Of a stretch of DNA of 32,000 bases, positions 547-32,000 are shown one piece after another. A program made the position numbers and the translations under genes. Positions within the stretch are counted from its first letter, which is position 1; every line of letters starts with the position of its first letter. The notes under the pieces are model-generated. The model ran no database searches and had not been told where the DNA came from. It saw nothing but the letters and a program-made list of their open reading frames with translations. Source of the DNA: Candidatus Saccharimonadota bacterium (GTDB taxonomy: Bacteria > Patescibacteriota > Saccharimonadia > Saccharimonadales > UBA4665); NCBI GenBank assembly GCA_016699935.1, contig CP064992.1, positions 600,001-632,000 of the forward strand, written 5' to 3'.

Positions 547-620
547 AGCAAAAACATTGTATACATAAGCACAATAACAGATTGGCACAATGAATTATTG
601 TTCCATATAGCGTCTTTCGC

Positions 621-856
621 TGGTGGGCGTTATCACTAGTGGAATCGGCCTGTTTCATCACGAAAAAGGCCAGCACTGCTGACCTTCTCTCGTGGTGGGC
701 GATATCACTTCGTGGAATCGGCCTGTTTCATCACGAAAAAGGCCAGCTGTGCTGAGCCTCTCTCGTGGTGGGCGATATCACTTCGTGGAATCGGCCTGTT
801 TCATCACGAAAAAGGCCAGCTGTGCTGACCTTCTCTCGTGGTGGGCGATATAGGAT
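621..856. repeat. Tandem repeat of three 72/73-bp units (621-692, 693-765, 766-838) plus an 18-nt partial (839-856). Every unit begins with a copy of the tRNA-Val 3' end.
   Basis: Each unit reads TGGTGGGCGATAT + CACTTCGTGGAATCGGCCTGTTTCATCACGAAAAAGGCCAGCTGTGCTGACCTTCTCTCG. The first 13 nt (18 nt at 839-856) are identical to the complement of the tRNA-Val 3' end at 1013-1030. Copies differ by a few substitutions. Confidence 0.9.
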
Positions 857-982
857 AGCAGGCTGCGCCTTTTTACGGGCAATCTTTCTCAGAACAAGTT
901 CCTGCGAGAGCTTGCCCTCCACCGAACCTTCGTTCGCTAAGCTCACTCTTACGGTTCTCTCCTATTCGTTAGCACCATATAT

Positions 983-1007
983 AAATACCCCAAATGAAGG
1001 GGTATTT
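983..1007 (-). terminator. Hairpin immediately downstream of tRNA-Val
   Basis: AAATACCCC-AAATGAA-GGGGTATTT is a 9-bp stem in an AT-rich context, placed just after the encoded CCA. Confidence 0.45.
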
Positions 1008-1012
1008 ATATA

Positions 1013-1089
1013 TGGTGGGCGATATAGGATTCGAACCTATCACCTCCACAACGTCAATGTGGCGCTCTAGCCAAATGAGCTAATCGCCC
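1013..1089 (-). tRNA. tRNA-Val (anticodon GAC), CCA encoded
   Basis: The reverse complement is GGGCGAT TA GCTC ATTTGGCTA GAGC G CCACA TTGACGT TGTGG AGGTG ATAGG TTCGAAT CCTAT ATCGCCC A CCA. This folds into a full cloverleaf with a canonical T-loop. Confidence 0.92.
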
Positions 1090-3944: not shown

Positions 3945-4205
3945 ATGTATGGCATAGAGTTTAGCCGTAGTGCCGATAAAGAGCTTAATCGATTGCCTGT
4001 TCTGGTAGTACAGCGTGTCATGAGCGCTATAGAGGGCTTGGCATATAAGCCGCGTCCTTCTGGTGTAAAGAAAATGCATGGTTTTCAGTCGGTATATCGT
4101 ATACGAGTCGGAGATTACAGGGTAATTTATGAAATTAAAGATGGATTTTTTGTAGTACTCATTCTTGAAATAGGACACAGGAAGCATGTCTATAGAGGGT
4201 TTTAG
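3945..4205 (+). CDS. relE: RelE/ParE-family type II toxin
   Basis: 86 aa containing ...KKMHGFQSVYRIRVGDYRVIYEIKDGFFVVLILEIGHRKHVY, the conserved RelE/StbE core. Confidence 0.8.
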   Translation: MYGIEFSRSADKELNRLPVLVVQRVMSAIEGLAYKPRPSGVKKMHGFQSVYRIRVGDYRVIYEIKDGFFVVLILEIGHRKHVYRGF

Positions 4206-4509
4206 CACTAGTTTTCGGGGGCGGGTTGAGGCGGTGGTGGCTGCTATTCCGAAGGGGCGGGTGATGAGCTATGGGCAGATTGCAGCGCTATGCGGTAATG
4301 CACGGGCGGCGCGGATTGTGGGTGGCATAGCGCACTTTGGCGATCCGGGTTTACCTTGGCAGCGCGTGGTCAGTAAGGAGGGAGGGCTGGCGAACGGCTA
4401 CCCAGGTGGCCGCAACGCTCATGCAGAGCACTTGCGCGCCGAAGGTGTGAATGTTTTGCCGGATATGAAAGTAGATGTAGAAAGTTTGCTCTGGTGGCCG
4501 GCACACTAG
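4186..4509 (+). CDS. Alkyltransferase-like (ATL/YbaZ-type) MGMT-family DNA-binding protein
   Basis: IPKGRVMSYGQIAALCG...GLPWQRVV. The MGMT active-site PCHR motif is replaced by PWQR (Cys to Trp), as in ATL proteins. The start overlaps the relE 3' end by 20 nt. Confidence 0.7.
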   Translation: MSIEGFSTSFRGRVEAVVAAIPKGRVMSYGQIAALCGNARAARIVGGIAHFGDPGLPWQRVVSKEGGLANGYPGGRNAHAEHLRAEGVNVLPDMKVDVESLLWWPAH

Positions 4510-4545
4510 TGTATCTGGCAATCGTTAGGTAATATCTAGGAAGGT

Positions 4546-5443
4546 ATGCAGAAGCCAACTACCAACTACCAACTACCAACTACCGAATCGCCGCTCGTGG
4601 TGATTGTTGGCGAGACGGCGAGCGGGAAGTCGGCGCTGGCGATGGAGCTTGCGCGGCAGTTTGAGGGCGAGATACTATGCGCCGACGCTATGACGGTCTA
4701 CACGGGGTTTGATATTGGCACCGCAAAGCCAAGCGCTCGTGACCAGGCGGAAATTACACACCACTTGCTGGACATTGCCGACCCAGCGCAAGGTTTCAAC
4801 GCCGCTCAGTTTAAGCACTTAGCGGAGCGGGCGATTACCGACATTGCAGCTCACGGAAACTACCGATTATGGTCGGTGGCAGCGGGCCTATATGTCGATA
4901 GTCTTTTGTATGATTATCAATTTACTGACTCACCAAACATCGGTGAAAGAGATGTATTAAACACAATGACGCTCGCCGAACTACGCCTGCTAGCTGAGAG
5001 TCGTGGGTTTGATACTACCAGCATAGACTCAGCGAACCCACGGCGACTCATTCGGCTCATAGAAAGCGGAGGCAAGCAGGCGGTCTGTGCGCCTATGCGT
5101 GAAAATACCTGCGTTATTGGACTACGACTAGACAGGGAAAACTTGAACCGCGTGTAAGGCAACGGGTGAGGGAAATGCTCGCAACCGGACTTCAAGAAGA
5201 AGTTAAACGCATGTCAGCTAGGTACGGTTGGGAGGTCGAGTCGATGAGGGTGTGGGCTACCGAGAATGGCGCGATACACTCGCTGGTAGCATATCTCTAG
5301 ACGAAACTATTGAACGAATCGTTCGCTCAACCATGCAGCTCGCAAAGAAACAACGCACATGGTTCAAGCGTAATAATAGTATTCACTGGGTGACTGACCC
5401 CAGTGATGCTGTAGAAATTGTAACAACACTATTGAACAAATAG
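4546..5443 (+). CDS. miaA: tRNA dimethylallyltransferase, frame broken about four times in this assembly
   Basis: It has the P-loop VVIVGETASGKSALA, ...ADAMTVYTGFDIGTAKP, and the C-terminal piece ...QLAKKQRTWFKRN in ORF 5228-5443. The middle part is readable only after shifts near 4858, 4885, 5150 and 5250. Confidence 0.85.
4555..4582 (+). repeat. Heptanucleotide tandem repeat (CCAACTA) x4 inside miaA codons 4-13
   Basis: The four perfect copies occupy 4555-4561, 4562-4568, 4569-4575 and 4576-4582. Confidence 0.95.
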
Positions 5444-7379: not shown

Positions 7380-7991
7380 ATGGGTGACTTCTCTTTGTAT
7401 AGTCTCTGTCTTTTTATCGTGTGCTTATTGGTAGCGATGACGGTACACGAGTTCATGCATGCCTACGTAGGCTTAAAGCTCGGTGATACCACCGCTAAAG
7501 ATCAAGGCAGGATTTCGCTGAACCCACTGAGCCATATTGATCCGTTCATGACGGTTGTTCTGCCAGCCATAACGTACGCGCTCTGGCAGGTTCTGTTCCT
7601 GGCGGCCAAACCCGTCCCGTTTCATCCCGGAAGGCTAAAATACGATGAATACGGTGCTGCCATGCTGGCCGCGGCTGGTCCGCTCTCTAATTTGGCACTG
7701 GCATTTTTGAGTGCAGTTGCTTTAAAATCATTTTCATTGCAAGGGCTTGCACTCGATTTGGTATCAACTTTTTTAGTGTTGAATGTCGGACTGTTTGTTT
7801 TCAACCTTATACCCATACCCCCCTTAGACGGTTCCCGCGTGCTCTACGCATTTGCTCCGGAGCCGCTTCAGGAGTTTATGGAAAAAGTTGAACCCTACGG
7901 CTTCATGATTATCATTGCGCTCGTATTGCTTGGTGGCTTTGGGGGATGGCTTAGTAACCTCAATCAGGCAGTACTAAGCGCCATACTGTGA
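7380..7991 (+). CDS. Site-2 protease family (peptidase M50) membrane metalloprotease
   Basis: It has an HEFMHAY zinc motif, multiple hydrophobic segments, and LIPIPPLDGSRV. Confidence 0.8.
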   Translation: MGDFSLYSLCLFIVCLLVAMTVHEFMHAYVGLKLGDTTAKDQGRISLNPLSHIDPFMTVVLPAITYALWQVLFLAAKPVPFHPGRLKYDEYGAAMLAAAGPLSNLALAFLSAVALKSFSLQGLALDLVSTFLVLNVGLFVFNLIPIPPLDGSRVLYAFAPEPLQEFMEKVEPYGFMIIIALVLLGGFGGWLSNLNQAVLSAIL

Positions 7992-11833: not shown

Positions 11834-13445
11834 ATGTACCAAGACGAAGACGAACCGCAAGTAGATATTACCAAGCTACGCTATGTGCTGTATGCTCGCA
11901 AGTCTACCGACGATCCAAAGCGTCAAATACGCTCTATAAATGACCAGATAGACGAGTGTAAGCTGTTGGCTGAACGTAGTGGTATGCGAATCGTAAAAGT
12001 TTTTAAAGAAGAAAAGTCAGCCAAGAAACCCAATAATCGCAAAGTCTTTAACGAGATGATGAGAGGTGTTGAGAGCGGGAAATATGATGGCATAGTGGCG
12101 TGGAACCCTGACCGTCTAGCCCGTAACATGATTGAGGGCAGCCACATTCTAAATCTTATAGATGATGGTACGATACAGGACCTTAAGTTCGTCACGCACT
12201 ACTTTACCAATGATGCTAGTGGCAAAATGTTACTCGGAATATCGTTCGTCATGGCGGACTACTACTCTCGTAACCTTTCACAAAACGTAACCAGAGGTGT
12301 TAGGAAAGGGCTAAAAGAGGGCAAGTCGTCTGGCACACCAATGCACGGTTACATCAGAGGTGAAGACGGTATCTATCGCCCCGATAACGAGAATGACAGT
12401 AAGAACTTCGACCTTATTTGTGAAGCATGGGAAATGCGTAAGGCTGGTAAGTCGCTAGAATCTATCGCCAAGCACATGAACGATAACGGGTATGGTCGTC
12501 TCTATAAAGACAATGCTGAAAAGGCTGGTCAAAAGGTTTTGATGACCGATAAGATTTTGAGCGACAGGGTGTTTCCTAACCCCTTTTATTACGGCGTACT
12601 AATTCAAAAAGGCAAAGCGATAGACCTTAGAGAGTTAGAGAGCTATGACTTCACGCCAGCTACAGATGAGGAAACTTATAACTATGTTCAGAGCCTTACG
12701 GGTAGACGCTCGACAGCCCAGACCAAACGTAAGGTCTTTAAGCCGTTAGTGGAGATGGTCTACTGCGCCTACTGTAACGCTAAGATGTACCCACAAACAC
12801 CTAAGAGCGGTAAGAAAACTGAAACCAAAAGAATCCTATCGTACCGCTGCGATAACAAGTTTTGTCAACGTAAAAACAAAGAACTTAAGCTAAACCAATC
12901 TGTTAGAGGGATAGAAATCTTTAAGTTCATGTATGAAATGCTAGATGGCTTAGACGTTAATCGTGATGATTATGAGAAGCTCCGTAAACGTCTGGAATAC
13001 CGTAACAAAGCCAAGTTACAGGAAACCCGTATACAGATTCACTCTCTGCAAGGTGCAGTAAAAGCATAGACCGTGATGTGAATGAGCGTAGCCTAAAGAT
13101 AATTAACCTCAAGAAAGACAGCCCTGTATACAAGAATAACGAGAAGTACATAGAGGAGCAGTCTGTGAAAATGCAGGGCTTCAAGAAGACATAGACAAGC
13201 TCCAAGAACAAATTACCGATCCAGACCAAGACATCATGAGCTTCGAGGAGTTCTTGAACATAGTCAATAACGCTGGAAAACTCCTTAGAGCAGCCGATGT
13301 AGGTCTGAAAGACAGAATTGCCCGTCTAATCTACTTGAACGTGCATGTAGACAGCGAAAAAGTGGTCGATTATCAGATGAGAGAGCCGTTCAAAACATAC
13401 TTCAAAACCCATAAAATCTCGAATGGTCGGGGTGACAGGACTTGA
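11834..13445 (+). CDS. Large serine recombinase (integrase type), two frameshifts in the C-terminal third
   Basis: The N-terminal resolvase domain reads LRYVLYARKSTDD...GIVAWNPDRLARN. A recombinase domain and a zinc ribbon (CAYCNAKMY...YRCDNKFCQRKN) follow. The C-terminal part is readable in two other frames (13070-13192, then 13191-13445). The last 22 nt overlap tRNA-Pro. Confidence 0.85.
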
Positions 13446-13498
13446 ACCTGCGACCTCACGGCCCCAGCCGTACGCGCTACCAACTGCGCTACACCCCG
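13424..13498 (-). tRNA. tRNA-Pro (anticodon GGG or UGG; the anticodon loop has only 6 nt as assembled), CCA encoded
   Basis: The reverse complement is CGGGGTG TA GCGC AGTTGGTA GCGC G TACGG CTGGGG CCGTG AGGTC GCAGG TTCAAGT CCTGT CACCCCG A CCA. The fold is a good cloverleaf. The loop is one nt short, inside a G-run. Confidence 0.8.
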
Positions 13499-13833
13499 AT
13501 GCTTTCATCTTACCATCATTGCTTAGATTCGCTGTGGGCCTACGGTCACGTTCCGCGACCCCGTCGCCACATCTTTGAAAACAAGTTTTCAAGAGTGGAC
13601 TCCTTGCGGCCCGCCACTGGCAGTCCTCACCCAGCCGTACGCGCTACCAACTGCGCTACACCCCGATGCTTTCATCTTACCATCATTGCTTAGATTCGCT
13701 GTGGGCCTACGGTCACGTTCCGCGACCCCGTCGCCACATCTTTGAAAACAAGTTTTCAAGAGTGGACTCCCTTGCGGCCCGCCACTGGCAGTCCTCACCC
13801 AGCCGTACGCGCTACCAACTGCGCTACACCCCG
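13454..13833. repeat. Tandem repeat with a ~168-bp period and ~2.2 copies. Each copy contains tRNA-Pro positions ~1-47 plus ~127 bp of upstream sequence.
   Basis: tRNA 5'-part copies lie at 13454-13498 (within the intact gene), 13625-13665 and 13793-13833. The intervening 126/127-bp blocks (13499-13624 and 13666-13792) differ only by one C in a C-run. The fragments lack GGCC of the anticodon arm and diverge from the tRNA at the T-arm. Confidence 0.9.
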
Positions 13834-14020
13834 ATAAGGTCATGAGACAAACCTTCGGTTTTCTCATCGCGCCGGGCTAAAAGCGTGGTTTTCGCTCGGG
13901 CTGCTCTTTTCCCTAAGCTTTAAAGCATAGTGGACTTGAACAGAGGTGATTATACGCCAACGGAATATTATTATCCAGGGGATCAGATTTGTGCACTCAA
14001 GCTGTGGTACGATAGTGCTT

Positions 14021-14735
14021 ATGTGGCAAGAAACAAAACATGGGCTTTATAAACAATTTGTCTTTACCGACTTTCACCATGCGTGGTCGTTTATGGAAAA
14101 AGTGAGCGTAGTTGTAAATGATCTTGACCATCATCCACGTTGGCAGAACGAATGGAACGTTGTAGAATTTTGGCTGTCAACACATGAACCTATGCAATCA
14201 ATCACCGAGAAAGACTGGGAACTCTCCAAGAAGATTGATGTAATTGCTGGCAATGATGCAGAAACTGCACCGGCGGCTTATGATGATAAAATTACTACAC
14301 AAATAACAGAGGTGCAGCTCTATACAGATGGTGGTTCTCGGGGTAATCCTGGTCCGTCAGCCAGCGGCTTTGTTCTGCTCGATATGGAAGGAAAAGTCGT
14401 GCATGAGCATGGCATTTTTCTCGGAATTACAACGAACAATCAGGCAGAATATCAGGCGCTGAAGATTGGTCTTGAGGCTGCTTTACAAAAATTTCAGGCT
14501 CGGAATGTGTATGTGTACATGGACAGTATGCTTGTGGTGAACCAAATGAAACGAATTATTCAAAGTCAAAAATCGCGACTTATGGCCTATCCACGACGCT
14601 ATTCAGCAGCTTCTCCCGAAGTTTGAGAAAGTGACATTTGACCATATACCGCGCGAACTCAACAAGCTAGCAGACGCTGAGGTAAATAAAGTACTCGATG
14701 CACAGCTTGAGTCGGCAGCACAGCACGTTGAGTAA
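14021..14735 (+). CDS. rnhA: Fusion protein with an N-terminal pterin-4a-carbinolamine dehydratase (PCD/DCoH)-like domain and a C-terminal RNase HI domain, one frameshift near 14558
   Basis: The PCD core is FVFTDFHHAWSFMEKVSVVVNDLDHHPRWQNEWNVVEFWLSTHE. The RNase H core is QLYTDGGSRGNPGP...NNQAEYQAL...YMDSMLVV, and the tail ...KVKNRDLWPIHDAI...NKLADAEVNK is in the next frame as far as the TAA at 14733-14735. Confidence 0.7.
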
Positions 14736-14776
14736 TTTTGCCGAGAAGCACAAACGAAATCTGTTAGAATAGGGAT

Positions 14777-15156
14777 ATGTTTGGAGCACTCCTCGGTTGG
14801 TGGTATGGGCTCGGTTGGAGTATGCAGCTACGTAGCGCGGCAATCCGCTGGGCGCGTTGGGTCGATTACTTCTCGTTTAGTACCATTGGACGGACACTTT
14901 TGCGCCGTTTCGACAAATAGGTTCGGGAAGCTCTGGTGGCTCAATAGATGCACAGTTTAGGCAATGGGTTGATCGCACCTTCTCCCGAGCGATAGGATTT
15001 GTTGTGCGCTTATGTACCGTGGTGTTTGGATCTGTGTGTATGCTTATGATCGGTATGGTGACTATTGGCCAACTGATAGGGTGGCTTCTAATGCCACTAT
15101 TGCCTTTCCTTGGAGCTATCTTAAGCTTAACAGGGTGGATACCATGGCGGAGCTAG
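14777..15156 (+). CDS. Small membrane protein, one frameshift near 14897, overlapping the start of the downstream ATPase gene
   Basis: MFGALLGWWYGLGW...FSTIGRTLFAPFRQIGSG...VVFGSVCMLMIGMVTIGQLIGWLLMPLLPFLGAILSL. Its stop at 15154-15156 overlaps the ATG at 15144 of the next gene. Confidence 0.5.
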
Positions 15157-17581
15157 ATAAACTCGACTTACGCGAAGCTTCCACCACCTCAACGTCGCAT
15201 AAGTTGAGTATGCATTCGCAGCGGGCTCGCAAGGCGAAGCTTGGTACCCGAATTAGTCGCACTTTCTCAGTGTTGCTCATTGTTGCCTCTATAGTAATTT
15301 TGGCGGGAGGTATCGGACTGCTTGTTTCTGGAACTGCGCTGGGATGGCTTTGTATCGGATTGGCGGCAGTACCCTGTATGTACAGCGTATGGGACGCGAG
15401 TGACCTCAATGGTATTCCTGCAGGCAAGGGTAGCAGTATTGATCAGGTACTCGAGAGTAGTATACTTGGGCGCCTTCCGCAGGATCCTTCGCCAAAAGAC
15501 ATTGCAGAGACGCTAATTTACTCTAGTGCTGCACGGTTCCTTATTGTGCGCTTTGAGTTGTCTCCGAGCGTTCTACGTGATTATTCATCTGATCATGCAA
15601 ATGATGCTGAGGCAGTCTGGCAGCAGGCTGAAAGGTACCGAGCAGAAGCAAGCAGCAGCTTGCTCAAGGGGATATGCTTGTGGTGGCGCTTTGCGCGACC
15701 CAGGCGAATATTACTGGGATGCTTCCCCATATACAACTTGAAACCGCGGATTTGCAGACAGGTTTGCGATGGTACGGAAGGATCCAGCAGGTTATCGATG
15801 AATATAGGAAGCCTCGAATGACAGGCGGTATTGCACGGGATTGGAACTTTGGCTATGCAAATTTACTTGAGCATTTTGGCACCAATATTAGCCAGCAAGC
15901 AGTACAATGGGGGTATGATGTACGCTGATCTTGAGACGCACCATGCAATCGAGGCACAACTACGGTCAGTTTTTCAGGTGAAGGACGTCAAAATGTCGCA
16001 CTTGTCGGTAAGCTGGGCGCGGGCAAGACGACCATCGCACAAGCATTTGCTGGCTCTCTCTTGAGTGGCGGGCGAAAATTGCCGACCAATTTGCGTTTTC
16101 GCCAGGTTATCCGGCTTGATGCGAGTGCATTGATACGAGCCGCCCGAAGTCGGGGTGAGCTTGAAGACGTAGTCCAGCGGCTTTTTGTCGAAGCGTTTCG
16201 GGCGAAAAATATTATCCTCTTCCTCGACGATGCACAGTTATTTTTTGAGGAGGGTAACGGTTCGGTAGATCTGACGTCGGCGCTATTACCAGTCCTCGAA
16301 GGTGGACGATTACGGATTTTTCTCGCCATGGATGAGCAAGCGTACTTACGGATTGCCCAGCGCAATCCAGCGCTTGTAAGTGTCCTAAACCGAGTAAATG
16401 TTGCCCCAGCTAGTGAAACAGATACGATGGCGGTCCTACAGGATCAGATCATTCGATTAGAATCAGAATACAAGGTGACCTATTCCTTCCAGTCACTCAA
16501 AGAAGCTTATCGGCTCAGTGAGCGCTATCAGCACGATATCGCGCAGCCCGGGAGAGCTGTCCTGCTCCTTGAGCAAGCCGCTCGTCAGGCGGACCACGGG
16601 TTTGTGACGGCTCAGTCGGTCGCTGCTGTGATTGAACAATCCAGTGGTGTTAAGGTCACGCCTCCGGCCAATGACGTTGTTGAGCGAGATAAGCTGCTAA
16701 ATATGGAAGATCTTATTCATGAGCGCATGGTTAACCAGTCACGAGCGGTCCGGGTCGTGAGTGATGCACTCAGGCGGGCAAGAGCGGGGGTACGAAATGA
16801 AAAACGACCGATTGGCACGTTCTTGTTCCTTGGGCCGACTGGAGTTGGTAAGACAGAGCTAGCCAAGGCACTGGCGACAGTTTACTTCGGTGGGGAAGAC
16901 CGAATAGTCCGAATTGATCTGAATGAATTTGTGCGGGCAGAAGATGTCTCACGACTAATCACCGATGGTGCCAATGATCCGCATGGTCTGACGGCAAGCC
17001 TCCTGAAACAACCGTTTTCGGTTGTGTTGCTCGATGAAATCGAGAAAGCTCACCCGCAAGTGCTGACTACCTTGCTCCAGATGCTCGACGAGGGCATATT
17101 ACGGGACATCAATAACCGTGAAGTAAATTTTCGAGACGCTATTGTGATTGCTACCAGTAATGCTGGGGCGGAACGCATACGACAGCTTATTGACGAGGGT
17201 AAAGAGCTTGAGCAGTTTGAAGACAGTATTATCAATGAGCTCATAAATGGCCAACAATTTCGCCCAGAATTCCTGAATCGATTTGATGAAATCGTCGTGT
17301 TTCGCCCGCTCGACAAGAACGAGCTGGGGCAGGTGGTACAGCGAATGATAACAGAGGTGAATAGCACACTTAAGACCCAGAAAATTCAGGTAGAGCTTAC
17401 AGCTGAGGCGGTACAGAAACTTGCCACTATCGGCTACGACCCGCGGCTTGGTGCTCGTCCGATGCGCCGGATGGTACAGCGCAGCGTTGAAAACTATGTT
17501 GCCAAACGAATCCTTGATGGCTCTGTTCAGCCTGGCCAGACCATTACGATTTCCGAAGCCGACATCCAAACAGAAAAATAA
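15144..17581 (+). CDS. ClpA/ClpB-family double AAA+ ATPase with an N-terminal transmembrane region, three frameshifts
   Basis: The N-terminal hydrophobic segments are LLIVASIVILAGGIGLLVSG and LGWLCIGLAAVPCMY. NBD1 has Walker A GKLGAGKT and Walker B ILFLDDAQ. NBD2 has GPTGVGKTELAKALA, VVLLDEIEKAH, NRFDEIVVFRPL and GARPMRR. The frame changes near 15668, 15915 and 15985. Confidence 0.8.
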
Positions 17582-17656: not shown

Positions 17657-18003
17657 GTTAGATTGACAGCTAATCGCTAGTACATTCATGTATTAGAGGA
17701 AAGTCCGGGCAGCATAGGGAGTGACAGCCGCTAACAGCGGCCGAGGGCGACCTTAGGGAAAGTGCCACAGAAACGAAACTACCTCGCTTACGCGAGGCAA
17801 AGATGAAACGCGCGGTGTAAGAGACCGTAATCGCGCATGGTAACATGCGAGAGAGGTAAACCCTGTCAGCTGCAAGGAGTGAGCTATACACGTTCCCGCG
17901 ATGCTTACGTATAACCCCGCTCGAGCTTATGAGCAATTGTAGGCCTAGATAGATGATTAGCCCTACTTCGGTGGGACAGAACCCGGCTTACGGCAATCTA
18001 ACA
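17657..18003 (+). ncRNA. rnpB: RNase P RNA (bacterial type)
   Basis: It carries the universal blocks GAGGAAAGTCCGGGC (17695-17709) and ACAGAACCCGGCTTA (17976-17990). P1 pairs GTTAGATTG (17657-) with CAATCTAAC (-18002). An extended -10 TGGTATAAT lies at 17642-17650. Confidence 0.92.
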
Positions 18004-18008
18004 ATATG

Positions 18009-18054: not shown

Positions 18055-18404
18055 TTATTTCTCGAGTTTGCAGGCTTTGACGACTGCTTCAAAAGCAGCC
18101 GGTTCGTTGACGGCTAGTTCGGCCAGAACCTTGCGGTCGAGGTCGATATTTGCTGCCTTTAGGCCGGCGATAAGACGACTGTAGGTAGTGCCGTGTTCAC
18201 GGGCGGCCGCATTGATACGGACGTTCCACAGGGCGCGAAAGGTGCGCTTGCGGTTACGGCGGTCGCGGTAGGCAAACTGCAGGCTACGGGTAGTAGCTTG
18301 CTTGGCACGTTTGATGCTCACCTGGTTCGGGTGGCTAAAACCTTTGCGGCTTTACGGATTTTGTTGTGTTTTGCTCTGGTGGTGACACCTCGTTTAACTC
18401 GCAT
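18055..18404 (-). CDS. rplT: 50S ribosomal protein L20, one frameshift near 18340
   Basis: The C-terminal ORF reads ...[31 protein letters not shown]. The N-terminus [23 protein letters not shown] is readable from the ATG at 18404 in the adjacent frame. Confidence 0.9.
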
Positions 18405-19280: not shown

Positions 19281-20815
19281 TTATGCATCATGAAACTGAT
19301 GAGGACGGTACTGAAGGGCTTCGGCGACGTGTTGAGGTTGGATTGTATCTGAATCATCCAAGTCAGCAATGGTACGGGCGAGTTTAACGCAACGCATGTA
19401 GGCTCGGGCACTAAGCCCAAATTTCTCGGCCGCCGCATCGAGCATGTCTTTAGCAGCAGGTTCAAGATGTGAGAGCTTTGACCTCACGATTGGTCATATC
19501 TGCGTTTAATTTGGCTTTAGGCCTGAAACGGGCTGCCTGGCGAGCCCGGGCAGCAGTCACTTTTTGTCGTATAGATTTTGATGAAGGCCCATCTGTTTGA
19601 TTCTCACGGAGCAGGTGGCTATTGTCGATCTCGTGAACATCTACGTATAGGTCGATACGGTCAAGAATTGGCCCGGAAAGTTTCCGACGATACTGCACAA
19701 TCTGGTGGGGTAAGCAGCGGCATGGCTTGCTTGTACCGTAGTGGCCGCAAGGGCAGGGATTAGCGGTGGCGATAAAGATGAAGTGTGCTGGGTACTCTGC
19801 TGTTTCCTTGGCGCGGGCGATGGTAACCGTGCGGGTCTCGAGCGGTTGGCGAAGAGCCTCCACAGTCACACGTCCGAATTCTGGGAGTTCATCGAAAAGC
19901 AATACACCACGATGCGCCAGACTCATTTTCGCCCGGCCTGACGCTATTGCCACCACCTACGATTGCGACGTTACTGGCGCTGTGGTGTGGTGACCGGAAC
20001 GGTCTTATAGTGACGAGCCTATTAAAGTCATTGCTTGCCAGACTATGCAAGTGAGTTACCTCTAGCATTTCGTCGCGGTTCATGGGTGGCAACAAGCTTG
20101 GCAGGATTTTTGCGAGCATGCTCTTACCCGTTCCTGGAGGACCGCCGAGTAGTACATTGTGTCCGCCGGCAGCGCTGATCTCTACCGCGCGTTTTCCGAG
20201 CATCTGTCCCACAACGTCCTCGATGCACAGGAGATCCTCGTCTTCTTCAGGGGCTGCTCGGCGGCGAACTGTTCATCTGATGTTTTAATTATTATTGGTG
20301 TTTTTATGGCTGTTCACGTAGTCGTACAGCTCAGCCAGAGAAGACACTGTGATGAGATGTATGTTTGGTACCAAACGGGCTTGTTCGAGATTGTCTTCGG
20401 GAATGATAAACGTATCAATACCATGGTATTTGCCAGCAAGTAACTTGCCAATTATGCCGCGGACCGGACGAACCGAACCCTCTAATCCTAGTTCGCCGAT
20501 AACGGCGCTTTTCATAGGGATCTCTTGGCATTGACCAGATGCTCGCAGTATGGCCGTTGCGATGGCCAGGTCAAATCCGGTACTTTCTTTCGGAATATCG
20601 GCAGGGGCAAGGTTTACGGTAATACGTTTAATGGGTAGTTCTAGCCTAGAACTTGCAAAGGCATTTCTAATGCGCTCTTTGGCTTCATCGACTGCTTTTG
20701 TTGCGTACCCAACAATGAGAATGGTAGGCAAGCCTTTGGTGAGCTGGCACTCAATATCTACGACCAAACCATGCTGACCGTTTTCCACCACCCCGTGGAT
20801 AGGTTGATATTTCAT
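19281..20815 (-). CDS. comM: ComM/YifB Mg-chelatase-like AAA+ protein, at least three frameshifts
   Basis: Four consecutive minus-strand ORFs cover the gene. They are the Lon-like N-domain (20285-20815), Walker A LLGGPPGTGKSMLAK (19889-20212), LLFDELPEF...CPCG (19462-19956), and the C-terminal tail (19281-19487). Confidence 0.85.
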
Positions 20816-31157: not shown

Positions 31158-31363
31158 AGCCAGCTAGTGCTTTTGAGGTCTCTATTTAGTGTCTCTCGAA
31201 AACTGGTCATTAAAAATTGAATAGTGCAAGGTCCCCTTTTACGAGGGGGACAATCAACGTCAGTTCACATTTCCGGCATTTGCCGGAGTGAATTGTTTTA
31301 GAAATTTCGAATCATAGATTCATGAAAGTAAGTCAGATTCAATCTGGCGCTAAGACAAATTCT

Positions 31364-32000
<637 letters not shown>

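Follow-up and report, generated by a model that had tools for sequence, protein, structure and literature searches.

A 32,000-nucleotide stretch of the genome of a Candidatus Saccharimonadota bacterium (contig CP064992.1, positions 600,001 to 632,000), referred to here as the window, carries a tRNA-Pro gene with two copies of a short unit on its upstream side and a gene for a large serine recombinase on the other. On the minus strand, from 13833 to 13424, tRNA-Pro nucleotides 1-36, a block, tRNA-Pro nucleotides 1-36 again, a second block and the full tRNA-Pro(GGG) gene follow one another, which is the order that an initial annotation of this DNA had proposed. The features are as follows.

11834..13445, plus strand: large serine recombinase gene, read in three frames (11834-13069, ~13060-13176 and 13179-13445), assigned by Pfam and by comparison with L019
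13424..13498, minus strand: tRNA-Pro(GGG), anticodon loop one G short in the assembly (ARAGORN; Rfam tRNA, 60 bits)
13499..13543, minus strand: spacer copy 2, immediately upstream of the full tRNA and presumed from its sequence to hold the tRNA-Pro promoter
13544..13629, minus strand: structured RNA module copy 2, with one G fewer in its G-run than copy 1 (R2, 91.1 bits, E 9e-16)
13630..13665, minus strand: partial tRNA-Pro copy 2, a direct repeat of the identical tRNA half
13666..13710, minus strand: spacer copy 1, consisting of GTAGGCCC and then an AT-rich stretch with TGGTAAGAT (-10-like, TG-extended)
13711..13797, minus strand: structured RNA module copy 1 (module-only covariance model R2, 97.4 bits, E 5e-17)
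13797-13666 and 13629-13499, minus strand: block 1 and block 2, between tRNA-derived sequences
13798..13833, minus strand: partial tRNA-Pro copy 1 (nt 1-36, covering the acceptor 5' strand, the D-arm, the 5' strand of the anticodon stem and CTGGG), with no mismatch to nt 1-36 of the tRNA at 13498
13834..13913, minus strand: conserved 80-nt element (GGGAAAAGAGCAGCCCG...GGCGCGATGAGAAAACCGAAGGTTTGTCTCAT), directly adjoining partial copy 1 (alignments with L112 and L050)

The earlier reading of a distinct ~168-bp repeat unit associated with tRNA-Pro is confirmed by TRF, which reports a repeat at 13463-13835 with a period of 167 bp, 2.2 copies, 99% matches and a score of 739, and by an exact direct repeat of 141 nt at the locus. 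A single nucleotide in 167/168 distinguishes the units, and identical 36-nt tRNA halves, three in all, bound them, giving the head-to-tail, near-identical copies with a shared end repeat that characterize a tandem duplication. The sole difference between the blocks is one G/C in a homopolymer run (GCAAGGGAG vs GCAAGGAG), in agreement with the earlier description. Module copy 1 consists of UGAG, hairpin A, CGCAAGG, a long hairpin B, CGGGG and hairpin C (GGTCGCG GAA CGTGACC), and the palindrome noted previously, TTGAAAAC-TTG-TTTTCAA, forms the tip of the conserved hairpin B. The last 38 nt of spacer copy 1 are identical at 28/38 positions to native sequence upstream of tRNA-Pro in L019. The 80-nt element abuts the tRNA itself in the unit-less loci L112 and L050; it marks the native upstream flank, and the units sit between that flank and the tRNA. 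The DNA between tRNA repeats is gene-less and measures 131-132 bp in the window and 136-224 bp in relatives.

The initial annotation had the partial copies matching the tRNA to about position 47, across a 4-nt GGCC deletion, and diverging where the T-arm begins. Ungapped identity to the tRNA covers 36 nt in the window and 37 nt (ending CTGGGG) in relatives, and the junction lies in the anticodon loop, after G37 (37/38). The longer match depends on the 5 nt TGAGG only, and the gapped alignment is unsupported, since the conserved module invariably opens with the TGAG that follows the junction. This tetranucleotide is present in 25/25 aligned units and is also kept in two units that lack a preceding tRNA 5' half, where the upstream sequence is at most degenerate tRNA-like and ends in the T-stem.

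The tRNA-Pro gene downstream of the array, previously called intact, is full-length, but its anticodon loop has 6 nt and ARAGORN returns it as tRNA-???. The loop reads CTGGGGG, with one G more than in the window, in 115/120 relatives, and those genes are called tRNA-Pro ggg. Indel errors in homopolymers are numerous in the window assembly and frameshift the IF3, L20, Lon-like, ClpB and Pterin/RNase H genes as well as the recombinase, whose frameshifts fall at A5->A4 and G4->G3. Errors of this kind probably account for the 6-nt loop, the single-nucleotide difference between blocks and the broken recombinase frame, all three of which would then be artefacts. Exact-protein look-up with the L35 protein recovered no same-strain contig, only relatives whose DNA is ~70-77% identical and whose locus order differs. 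With units that differ by homopolymer length only and so many indel errors in the window, a single unit mis-assembled as two in an error-rich long-read assembly has to be considered; it is extremely improbable, since other species assembled independently (L126, L122, L035) also have tandem units, a short-read assembly is interrupted exactly within the array (L035/L040), and a 167-bp repeat is easily spanned by long reads. The unit itself would stay even at one copy.

The blocks are not junk that an insertion brought along: they encode an RNA structure that covaries and is folded in the sense of the tRNA. Units of this family were found at ~22 Saccharibacteria loci in the order tRNA half, UGAG, hairpin A, YGCAAGG, long hairpin B, CGGGG, hairpin C, an optional but often present hairpin D, a spacer with a -10-like box, and the tRNA, the module spanning ~87 nt and the AT-rich spacer 40-45 nt. 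A genome scan located units in L032, L035, L039, L066, L084, L099 and L110, a metagenome scan gave 16 true unit matches, and L147 adds one further. RNAalifold, run on a MAFFT alignment that was not fitted to any structure, returned the same helices with 48 pairs, 20 of them compensatory. Across the 25 units, 96% of cells are paired and double changes are seen at 27/48 pairs, values of pairing and covariation that 0/500 shuffled controls reach, while slid controls are 31-49% paired; with compensatory changes beyond these controls, the module qualifies as a conserved structured RNA. The closing helix and hairpin D show no covariation in these 25 units. Frequent G-U pairs assign the fold to the tRNA-sense strand, and the L084 unit folds with z = -3.3. 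A C-run 3' of the hairpins is a possible pairing partner of the junctional GGG(G). Folding of the whole unit as a tRNA-like cloverleaf was considered and rejected, because the outer pairs of hairpin C covary, favouring hairpin C over a pairing of CCGU with the anticodon-stem 5' strand, and because the 3' C-run does not change in compensation where the acceptor has A5. A promoter and terminator scan of the locus found no terminator and, in the spacer, no two-hexamer promoter, only -10-like boxes, which recur in the spacers of other units.

No Rfam family significantly matches the unit in searches of the window, the locus and four relatives, whether at gathering thresholds or at E<=10, in keeping with the original impression that no described element has this layout. 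The families matched in that search were tRNA, RNase P and SSU rRNA, together with a sub-threshold 6S upstream in L084; the best non-tRNA match to the unit was DUF3800-VI, at 17.6 bits against a gathering cut-off of 35 (E 0.29). ARAGORN found no tmRNA, and there was no Rfam match to self-cleaving ribozymes, Y RNA or 6S. 6S RNA was also considered as the identity of the conserved upstream element and is unsupported in the window, L112 and L050.

R2 elements use an HDV-like ribozyme at their 28S junction, and by analogy the module could be an intron- or ribozyme-like mobile RNA that starts at tRNA 37/38, is co-transcribed with the tRNA half and self-cleaves or splices at the junction. The 5' boundary (G-run/UGAG) is invariant whatever precedes it, the RNA folds into a compact junction of several helices, with the upstream GGG taking part in its predicted closing helix, and the module recurs at a mimic site, CGGG/UGAG, inside other units. 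Position 37/38 is the canonical tRNA intron site (PMC4090602), and group I introns occur in bacterial anticodon loops (10.1101/2020.01.27.920355). Such a mobile RNA is nevertheless highly improbable, since Rfam gives no match to Intron_gpI or to self-cleaving ribozymes even at E<=10 and the domain is far below the size of known group I or II introns. The module is not followed by the tRNA 3' half, and with no intact 3' exon splicing could not give a tRNA. The fused modules are more simply explained by microhomology deletion between the G-runs of tandem units, and no reverse transcriptase goes specifically with the units, the gene for RVT_3/RNase H being part of a conserved synteny seen in loci with and without them.

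The genes that flank the units are housekeeping genes (Peptidase_M50, QueA, asparaginase, Pterin_4a/RNase H, HAD). In ~1.3 Mb of Saccharibacteria DNA the module-only model matches solely beside tRNA-Pro, although the searches were seeded with tRNA-Pro and copies elsewhere would escape them. Viral contigs, in four pattern scans, and phage records, in one BLAST search, gave chance matches only, all of which the covariance models rejected, and the module-only model had zero matches in viral contigs. Fragments of tRNA genes commonly result from the integration of elements (PMC9897764), and the blocks might accordingly be leftover ends in decayed scars of prophages or islands that once used tRNA-Pro. 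This gene is a proven integration site here, with one recombinase family at 16 loci, and the tRNA-Val locus in the same window has a classical 3'-fragment array. Random remnants, on the other hand, would not retain boundaries, an 87-nt architecture and compensatory changes across ~22 loci; the duplicated part is the 5' half, and no element genes are left at any locus. An origin as scars is thus very unlikely.

Units are single, tandem or fused, in 1 or 2 copies. Near-identical pairs are found in the window, L035 and L126, and L122 has two divergent units. In L032 and L039 two modules are fused at CGGG/TGAG, an arrangement that had been read as a nested insertion and is now read as two modules joined head-to-tail at the G-run. 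The unit is missing from close relatives exactly at the tRNA boundary, as can be seen in the empty-site pairs L084 vs L091 (flanks 89% identical), window vs L112/L050 (where the window's upstream flank matches their native upstream sequence), L039 vs L081, and L131 vs L092. The native flank adjoins the partial copy in 4/4 clear comparisons, which is also what insertion of module, spacer and tRNA half as one piece into the tRNA would produce. Both unit and recombinase are missing from L034, the nearest relative when RNase P RNA is compared (88% identity). Lineage-specific variants of the tRNA (A5 in L122 and L133, a GGCTA D-loop in L131) appear in partial and full copies alike, which points to local homogenisation and argues for local origin or gene conversion. 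Modules are 87% identical between L131 and L133, vs 68% for the RNase P of their hosts, and 70% vs 83% between the window and L126; module subfamilies are therefore incongruent with the host tree, and horizontal spread or old paralogy fits better than simple local turnover. Two units (L099, L130) lie downstream of the tRNA, joined to its 3' end from the T-loop onward, and look like a classical attachment-site scar in their sequence.

The serine recombinase that was annotated beside the tRNA is present, with its reading frame broken twice, between 13069 and 13200. Over three frames it is 81-92% identical to the intact protein of L019, which has 531 aa where large serine recombinases typically have about 450-700 aa. 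The N-terminal resolvase domain is recognized (PF00239, E 3.7e-26, 92 bits; E 2e-22 in the L019 homologue), and the Recombinase domain (PF07508, 19.9 bits, cut-off 21.1) and zinc ribbon (PF13408, Zn_ribbon_recom, 23.0 bits, cut-off 25.3) both fall just under threshold. Neither the recombinase fragment nor a 339-aa protein has an exact-protein record. The open reading frame at 13236-13445 ends within the tRNA, its last 22 nt, or last 7 codons, being the complement of the tRNA-Pro 3' end, as the initial annotation had observed. By tblastn the family is present at 16 tRNA-Pro loci with the same complementary last codons, most of them without units. In L019, which has a unit remnant, a second GTTCAAGTCTTGTCAC lies 3.5 kb away. 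A displaced tRNA 3' fragment or far-end site of the recombinase element was sought and not found in the window; the second core was seen in L019 only.

A causal link between this enzyme and the array, which the initial annotation had suggested, is not upheld: units and arrays occur in many genomes beside housekeeping genes, without a recombinase in the sequence examined. Recombinase-free arrays of constant copy number had been named as the finding that would tell against the link; arrays with no recombinase do exist, and on that count the link fails, although copy number varies between genomes. Of the proposed repeated insertion, the presence or absence of units at an exact tRNA boundary stands, and the T-arm junction and the role of the recombinase do not. 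The idea in its strongest form is a non-autonomous miniature integrative element, composed of module, promoter spacer and tRNA 5' half, which a recombinase acting in trans (this one or another integrase) inserts into the anticodon loop of tRNA-Pro, repeated events building the array. It draws on the exact boundary with native flank beside the partial copy, the patchy distribution and incongruent module subfamilies, the two divergent tandem units of L122, which independent insertions would be expected to leave, the two attR-scar-like downstream units, and the joint occurrence of units and recombinase in the window, L141, OFTM59 (L035+L040) and L147. This co-occurrence is slightly above chance. 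Most unit loci, however, have no recombinase gene in the sequence examined, and at least 10 recombinase loci have no unit. The 16-bp sequence common to the ends of the L019 element falls within the T-loop and the 3' strand of the T-stem, away from 37/38, and an inverted-repeat core is absent at the unit junction. A 170-bp circle is a poor recombination substrate. The tRNA variants common to partial and full copies, the RNA-structure selection on the module, which a passive att arm would not need, and the zero copies in viral contigs or phage records also count against such an element, and we regard it as unlikely. The recombinase belongs to a separate, unrelated integrative element that uses the tRNA-Pro 3' end.

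With moderate confidence, we interpret the 167/168-bp repeat as a two-copy tandem array of a unit from a Saccharibacteria-wide, tRNA-Pro-bound family. The unit would be transcribed from the native upstream promoter as a chimera of tRNA half and structured RNA, and the spacer would provide the tRNA with a replacement promoter. Recombination between the tRNA-half repeats is the most likely source of change in copy number: unequal homologous exchange, or slippage, between these 37-nt sequences could raise it, as in the window, or bring it to zero, as in relatives, and microhomology deletion between G-runs could fuse neighbouring units. A more far-reaching and rather doubtful proposal is that the module represents a new class of protein-free, tRNA-nested element, a small structured RNA, possibly catalytic or a guide, at 37/38 of a tRNA-Pro copy, which would capture the tRNA promoter, restore tRNA expression with a promoter of its own and pass from one Saccharibacteria genome to another, for instance by natural transformation with recombination at the universally conserved tRNA half.

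Partial tRNA genes are usually dismissed as integration scars; here one forms the conserved 5' end of a folded RNA that has no Rfam entry. The unit recurs across the episymbiotic, genome-reduced Saccharibacteria and has been gained, lost, duplicated and fused at one tRNA locus. If the RNA is functional, it would be a new tRNA-derived class, and the non-coding RNAs of this phylum are almost unexplored; were it selfish, it would show how a gene-less element can inhabit a tRNA gene without destroying it, by duplicating the 5' half and supplying a promoter. In practical terms, the array breaks short-read assemblies (L035/L040) and may mislead tRNA annotation. The unit can now be set apart from the widespread serine recombinase family, for which the tRNA-Pro 3' end serves both as attachment site and as its own C-terminal coding sequence.

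Several known systems resemble parts of this arrangement. K. P. Williams reportedly defined sublocation classes of integration within tRNA genes. As in tRNA-targeting elements, a direct repeat of partial tRNA flanks extra DNA beside an intact tRNA, tandem arrays are possible, and the breakpoints, at the anticodon loop and, in two downstream variants, the T-loop, are classical crossover sublocations. Unlike in those elements, the repeated part is the 5' half (nt 1-36/37), the 3' end being involved only in L099 and L130; the insert is gene-less, measures 130-225 bp, has no integrase at most loci and encodes a covarying RNA and a promoter-like spacer for the tRNA. Since the recombinase lies outside the repeat-bounded DNA, on the other side of the tRNA, and the repeated segment is not the tRNA 3' part, the repeats are not att-site repeats. 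Large serine recombinases of the phiC31, Bxb1 and A118 type resemble the neighbouring gene in its Resolvase domain, with weak, sub-threshold Recombinase and zinc-ribbon matches beside it, the 531-aa length of its intact homologue, its place at the edge of inserted DNA and its fixed chromosomal site, but it is unusual for the last 7 codons to complement a tRNA 3' end. The pneumococcal BOX and Neisseria Correia repeats are likewise short, gene-less and modular, with variable copy number, stable RNA hairpins and possible promoter-like sequences; they have terminal inverted repeats and number tens to hundreds of scattered copies, whereas the unit was found at tRNA-Pro only and is bounded by a tRNA-half direct repeat. 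Having no terminal inverted repeats but the 37-nt tRNA half as its repeat, and with every match in ~1.3 Mb beside tRNA-Pro, it is not MITE-like. Anticodon-loop introns (bacterial group I, 10.1101/2020.01.27.920355; archaeal and eukaryal at 37/38, PMC4090602) also comprise a structured RNA that starts at tRNA 37/38, but the unit has no 3' exon or group I core (Rfam), is much smaller and is followed by a complete tRNA. Like tmRNA, YrlA (a bacterial Y RNA), mascRNA and the tRNA-derived SINEs, the unit fuses a partial tRNA to a structured non-tRNA domain, probably originated from a tRNA gene duplicate and has a link to tRNA processing signals; it differs from them in lacking a T-arm, a CCA end and any tmRNA or Y-RNA match (ARAGORN, Rfam), in the identity of its 5' half to the neighbouring tRNA, and in its residence at one locus, in contrast to dispersed SINEs.

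Read on the minus strand, the array in the window consists of two partial copies of tRNA-Pro, each followed by a block, and a full tRNA-Pro:

13833-13798, minus: first partial tRNA-Pro copy, 36 nt of the 5' end
13797-13666, minus: first block, 132 nt
13665-13630, minus: second partial tRNA-Pro copy, the same 36 nt
13629-13499, minus: second block, 131 nt
13498-13424, minus: full tRNA-Pro

This layout, described in the initial annotation, is real as assembled and is recovered by sequence read-out, by Tandem Repeats Finder (period 167, 2.2 copies, 99% matches, score 739) and by a repeat search, which gives an exact repeat of 141 nt. As had also been described, the two blocks are nearly identical, the sole difference being one base in a G/C run, and a palindrome is present within the block. 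The partial copies had been said to diverge at the T-arm; tRNA identity instead ends in the anticodon loop, past the anticodon, and the alignment with a GGCC deletion had drawn on just five bases, TGAGG, which are the conserved start of the block. The tRNA-Pro described as intact is a full gene, but its anticodon loop has only six bases, being reported as 'tRNA-???' by ARAGORN and appearing as a shortened loop in the Rfam alignment.

With many essential genes frame-split, the window resembles a long-read assembly that was never polished, and its single-base features are for that reason untrustworthy. Judged against proteins of related contigs, the genes for IF3, L20, a Lon-like protease, ClpB, a 128-aa protein, the Pterin_4a/RNase H protein and the large serine recombinase that adjoins the tRNA-Pro 3' end are split over two or three frames, and these include:

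14774-17578: 128-aa protein and ClpB
18058-18404: L20
18665-19175: IF3
19284-20800: Lon-like protease

The two recombinase frameshifts fall at an A-run and a G-run, each one base short relative to the frame of the intact protein of L019 (L-numbers denote related tRNA-Pro loci or contigs used for comparison). The tRNA-Pro loop reads CTGGGGG in 115 of 120 related genes among the matches listed, the window having one G fewer, and partial copies in relatives end in CTGGGG, one G more than those of the window. Because the runs of relatives are one base longer and frame splits are widespread, the short anticodon loop, the one-base block difference and the broken recombinase are most simply read as sequencing errors.

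A genome scan covering one genome per species and seeded with a 30-mer from the tRNA-Pro 5' half returned at least 120 Saccharibacteria loci, several of which carry a second, partial tRNA copy and a block homologous to that of the window; a metagenome scan with a junction 20-mer gave 16 true and 5 chance matches. A covariance model built from 13 units and run on all loci scored units at 76-184 bits, against about 50 bits for plain tRNAs, and detected diverged units in L039, L099 and L110 and a second unit in L130; L147, a locus obtained for another purpose, also carries a unit. Units are present in about 22 distinct loci among those examined, both large scans being seeded with tRNA-Pro sequence and units away from tRNA-Pro lying outside their reach. 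From 5' to 3', the unit is organized as follows:

tRNA-Pro nucleotides 1-37, then UGAG
hairpin A, 7-8 pairs with a 3-5-nt loop, then YGCAAGG
long hairpin B with internal loops, then (U)UUCGGGG
hairpin C, GGUCGCS-GAA-SGUGACC
hairpin D (CCGUGAGG..CCUCACGG), in the majority of units but not all, and absent from the window
C-run, AT-rich spacer of 30-45 nt, intact tRNA

Hairpin C is expanded in one subfamily (L066, L135, L137, and L141), and some partial tRNA copies (L122, L129, L140, L039, and L147) have an altered D-loop with the D-stem largely retained. Most spacers contain a -10-like hexamer that lies 9-18 nt upstream of the tRNA and in several cases is preceded by TG. AT-rich sequence matches such a motif easily, and promoter activity of the spacer is accordingly putative.

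The block encodes a conserved RNA structure: from a MAFFT alignment, RNAalifold predicted 48 pairs, 20 of them with compensatory changes. In an alignment of 25 units, pairing holds in 96% of cells, and both partners have changed in 27 pairs; none of 500 shuffles reached any of five measures, and sliding the partners by 1-3 columns lowered pairing to 31-49%. The 25-unit alignment was fitted by the covariance model, which favors structure, and the unfitted MAFFT alignment gives the same helices. Covariation signal is found in hairpins A, B, and C, with too little variation for such a signal in hairpin D and in the three-pair helix closed between the junction GGG and a downstream CCC. At many positions G-C is exchanged for G-U, a pair that would become C-A on the opposite strand, so that the fold belongs to the tRNA-sense strand. 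Relative to shuffles, the L084 unit folds with z = -3.3, and the window unit by itself with z = -0.9. No Rfam family matches the block, the best non-tRNA match reaching 17.6 bits where the gathering score is 35. The data do not support a cloverleaf formed by the whole unit, and the lack of a 3' exon speaks against an intron.

The unit is polymorphic between relatives. L084, with a unit, and L091, without, are 89% identical over 1.1 kb, the similarity stopping exactly at the partial copy; the L039/L081 and L131/L092 comparisons give the same pattern, and the window's 80-nt upstream element adjoins the tRNA itself in L112 and L050. These comparisons with unit-less relatives identify sequence 5' of the first partial copy as the native tRNA upstream flank. 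The element (13834-13913, minus; GGGAAAAGAGCAGCCCG..hairpin..GGCGCGATGAGAAAACC-GAA-GGTTTGTCTCAT) directly adjoins tRNA-Pro or a first partial copy in three distant genomes; it could form a hairpin, matches no Rfam family and is a candidate co-transcribed small RNA or leader. Directly upstream of the L084 unit is a near-threshold 6S RNA match (7456-7604; 41.5 bits, gathering score 46.4). A fused Pterin-4a-carbinolamine dehydratase/RNase H (RVT_3) gene (window 13946-14708) is a conserved neighbor of tRNA-Pro across Saccharibacteria, with or without units.

At least 80 of the loci examined have RNase P RNA no more than 8 kb from tRNA-Pro, and it served as host marker; the window also contains part of a 16S rRNA:

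17658-18005: RNase P RNA (class A, 242 bits)
31363-32000: 16S rRNA, 5' 581 model positions, running past the window end

On the host tree, a rough neighbor-joining tree from RNase P RNA alone, units are restricted to one half and are patchy within it. The nearest relative of the window by this marker among the matches listed, L034 (88%), has neither unit nor recombinase. Two near-identical units are present in the window, in L126 and in L035, which together with L040 represents two contigs of one genome with the break inside the array. In L032 and L039, two modules meet at CGGG|TGAG without an intervening tRNA half, as would be expected of a deletion between the G-runs of adjacent units. In L110 (7277-7470), the spacer leads to a different GC-rich, structured-looking stretch, and the position of tRNA-Pro, 600 bp away on the other strand rather than after the spacer, suggests a rearranged locus.

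Two explanations fit these distributions. Movement of a small mobile element between genomes agrees with the flank comparisons, with module similarity that does not follow host similarity by RNase P RNA, with a pair of divergent tandem units in L122, and with two downstream variants, in which a module lies past tRNA-Pro and its terminator:

L099 4739-4907, minus: downstream module
L130 2012-2176, plus: downstream module

In both, a degenerate tRNA-like stretch that ends in the T-stem 5' strand comes before the module, and a short T-arm and CCA-bearing acceptor 3' end come after it (the 3' part of the tRNA, starting at the T-loop); hairpin C is made of T-stem-like sequence (CCTGC-AGAAT-GTAGG). 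Local duplication with differential loss fits the lineage-specific variants that partial and full tRNA copies of a locus usually have in common, the restriction of units to one locus (in scans seeded with tRNA-Pro sequence) and their absence from viral DNA.

The initial annotation had suggested a link between the units and the serine recombinase, which is better treated as a separate matter: at least 10 recombinase loci lack a unit, and the recombinase is missing from most loci with units, whose flanking genes are housekeeping (Peptidase_M50, QueA, asparaginase, Pterin_4a/RNase H, and HAD). Both occur together in the window, L141, L035+L040, and L147, slightly above chance in very small numbers. 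The window ORF contains a Resolvase domain and gives Recombinase and zinc-ribbon matches slightly below threshold; over three frames it is 81-92% identical to the intact 531-aa L019 protein. Its reported overlap with the tRNA-Pro 3' end holds, the ORF ending at 13445 with 22 nt shared, and homologues of 28-59% identity end within the tRNA-Pro 3' end in at least 16 loci (among them L019 2233-3828, L065, L036, L103, and L027). Because the last seven codons (GRGDRT*; window 13424-13445) are complementary to the T-arm and acceptor 3' strand of tRNA-Pro, the attachment site coincides with the 3' end of the recombinase gene. In L019, a 16-bp T-loop/T-stem sequence recurs 3.5 kb away, which points to recombination by this family in the T-arm and not at 37/38, where the partial copies end. 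The L019 lineage has probably lost a unit, since its spacer is identical to that of the window at 28 of 38 positions and traces of hairpin C remain. Between its Pterin/RNase H gene and tRNA-Pro, where the window has units, L019 carries two short adjacent ORFs (3950-4860) whose translations, on visual inspection, resemble a toxin-antitoxin pair.

The evidence best supports a locus-bound unit encoding a structured RNA fused to a tRNA half. Recombination between the 37-nt repeats would raise or lower its copy number, and the window would represent a recent expansion to two copies; the unit would be transcribed from an upstream promoter, and the spacer would supply a replacement promoter for tRNA-Pro.

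The same 32 kb holds a second tRNA-fragment array. Downstream of tRNA-Val(GAC) (1013-1089, minus) come a terminator, about 115 nt of further sequence and an 18-nt duplicate of the tRNA-Val 3' end (ATCCTATATCGCCCACCA), and then, within 613-1089 (minus), approximately three 73-bp tandem units, each with a GGCC...GGCC hairpin and ending in ATATCGCCCACCA. No counterpart was seen beside the tRNA-Val genes of L032, L084, and L050. This array is of the classical 3'-fragment type.
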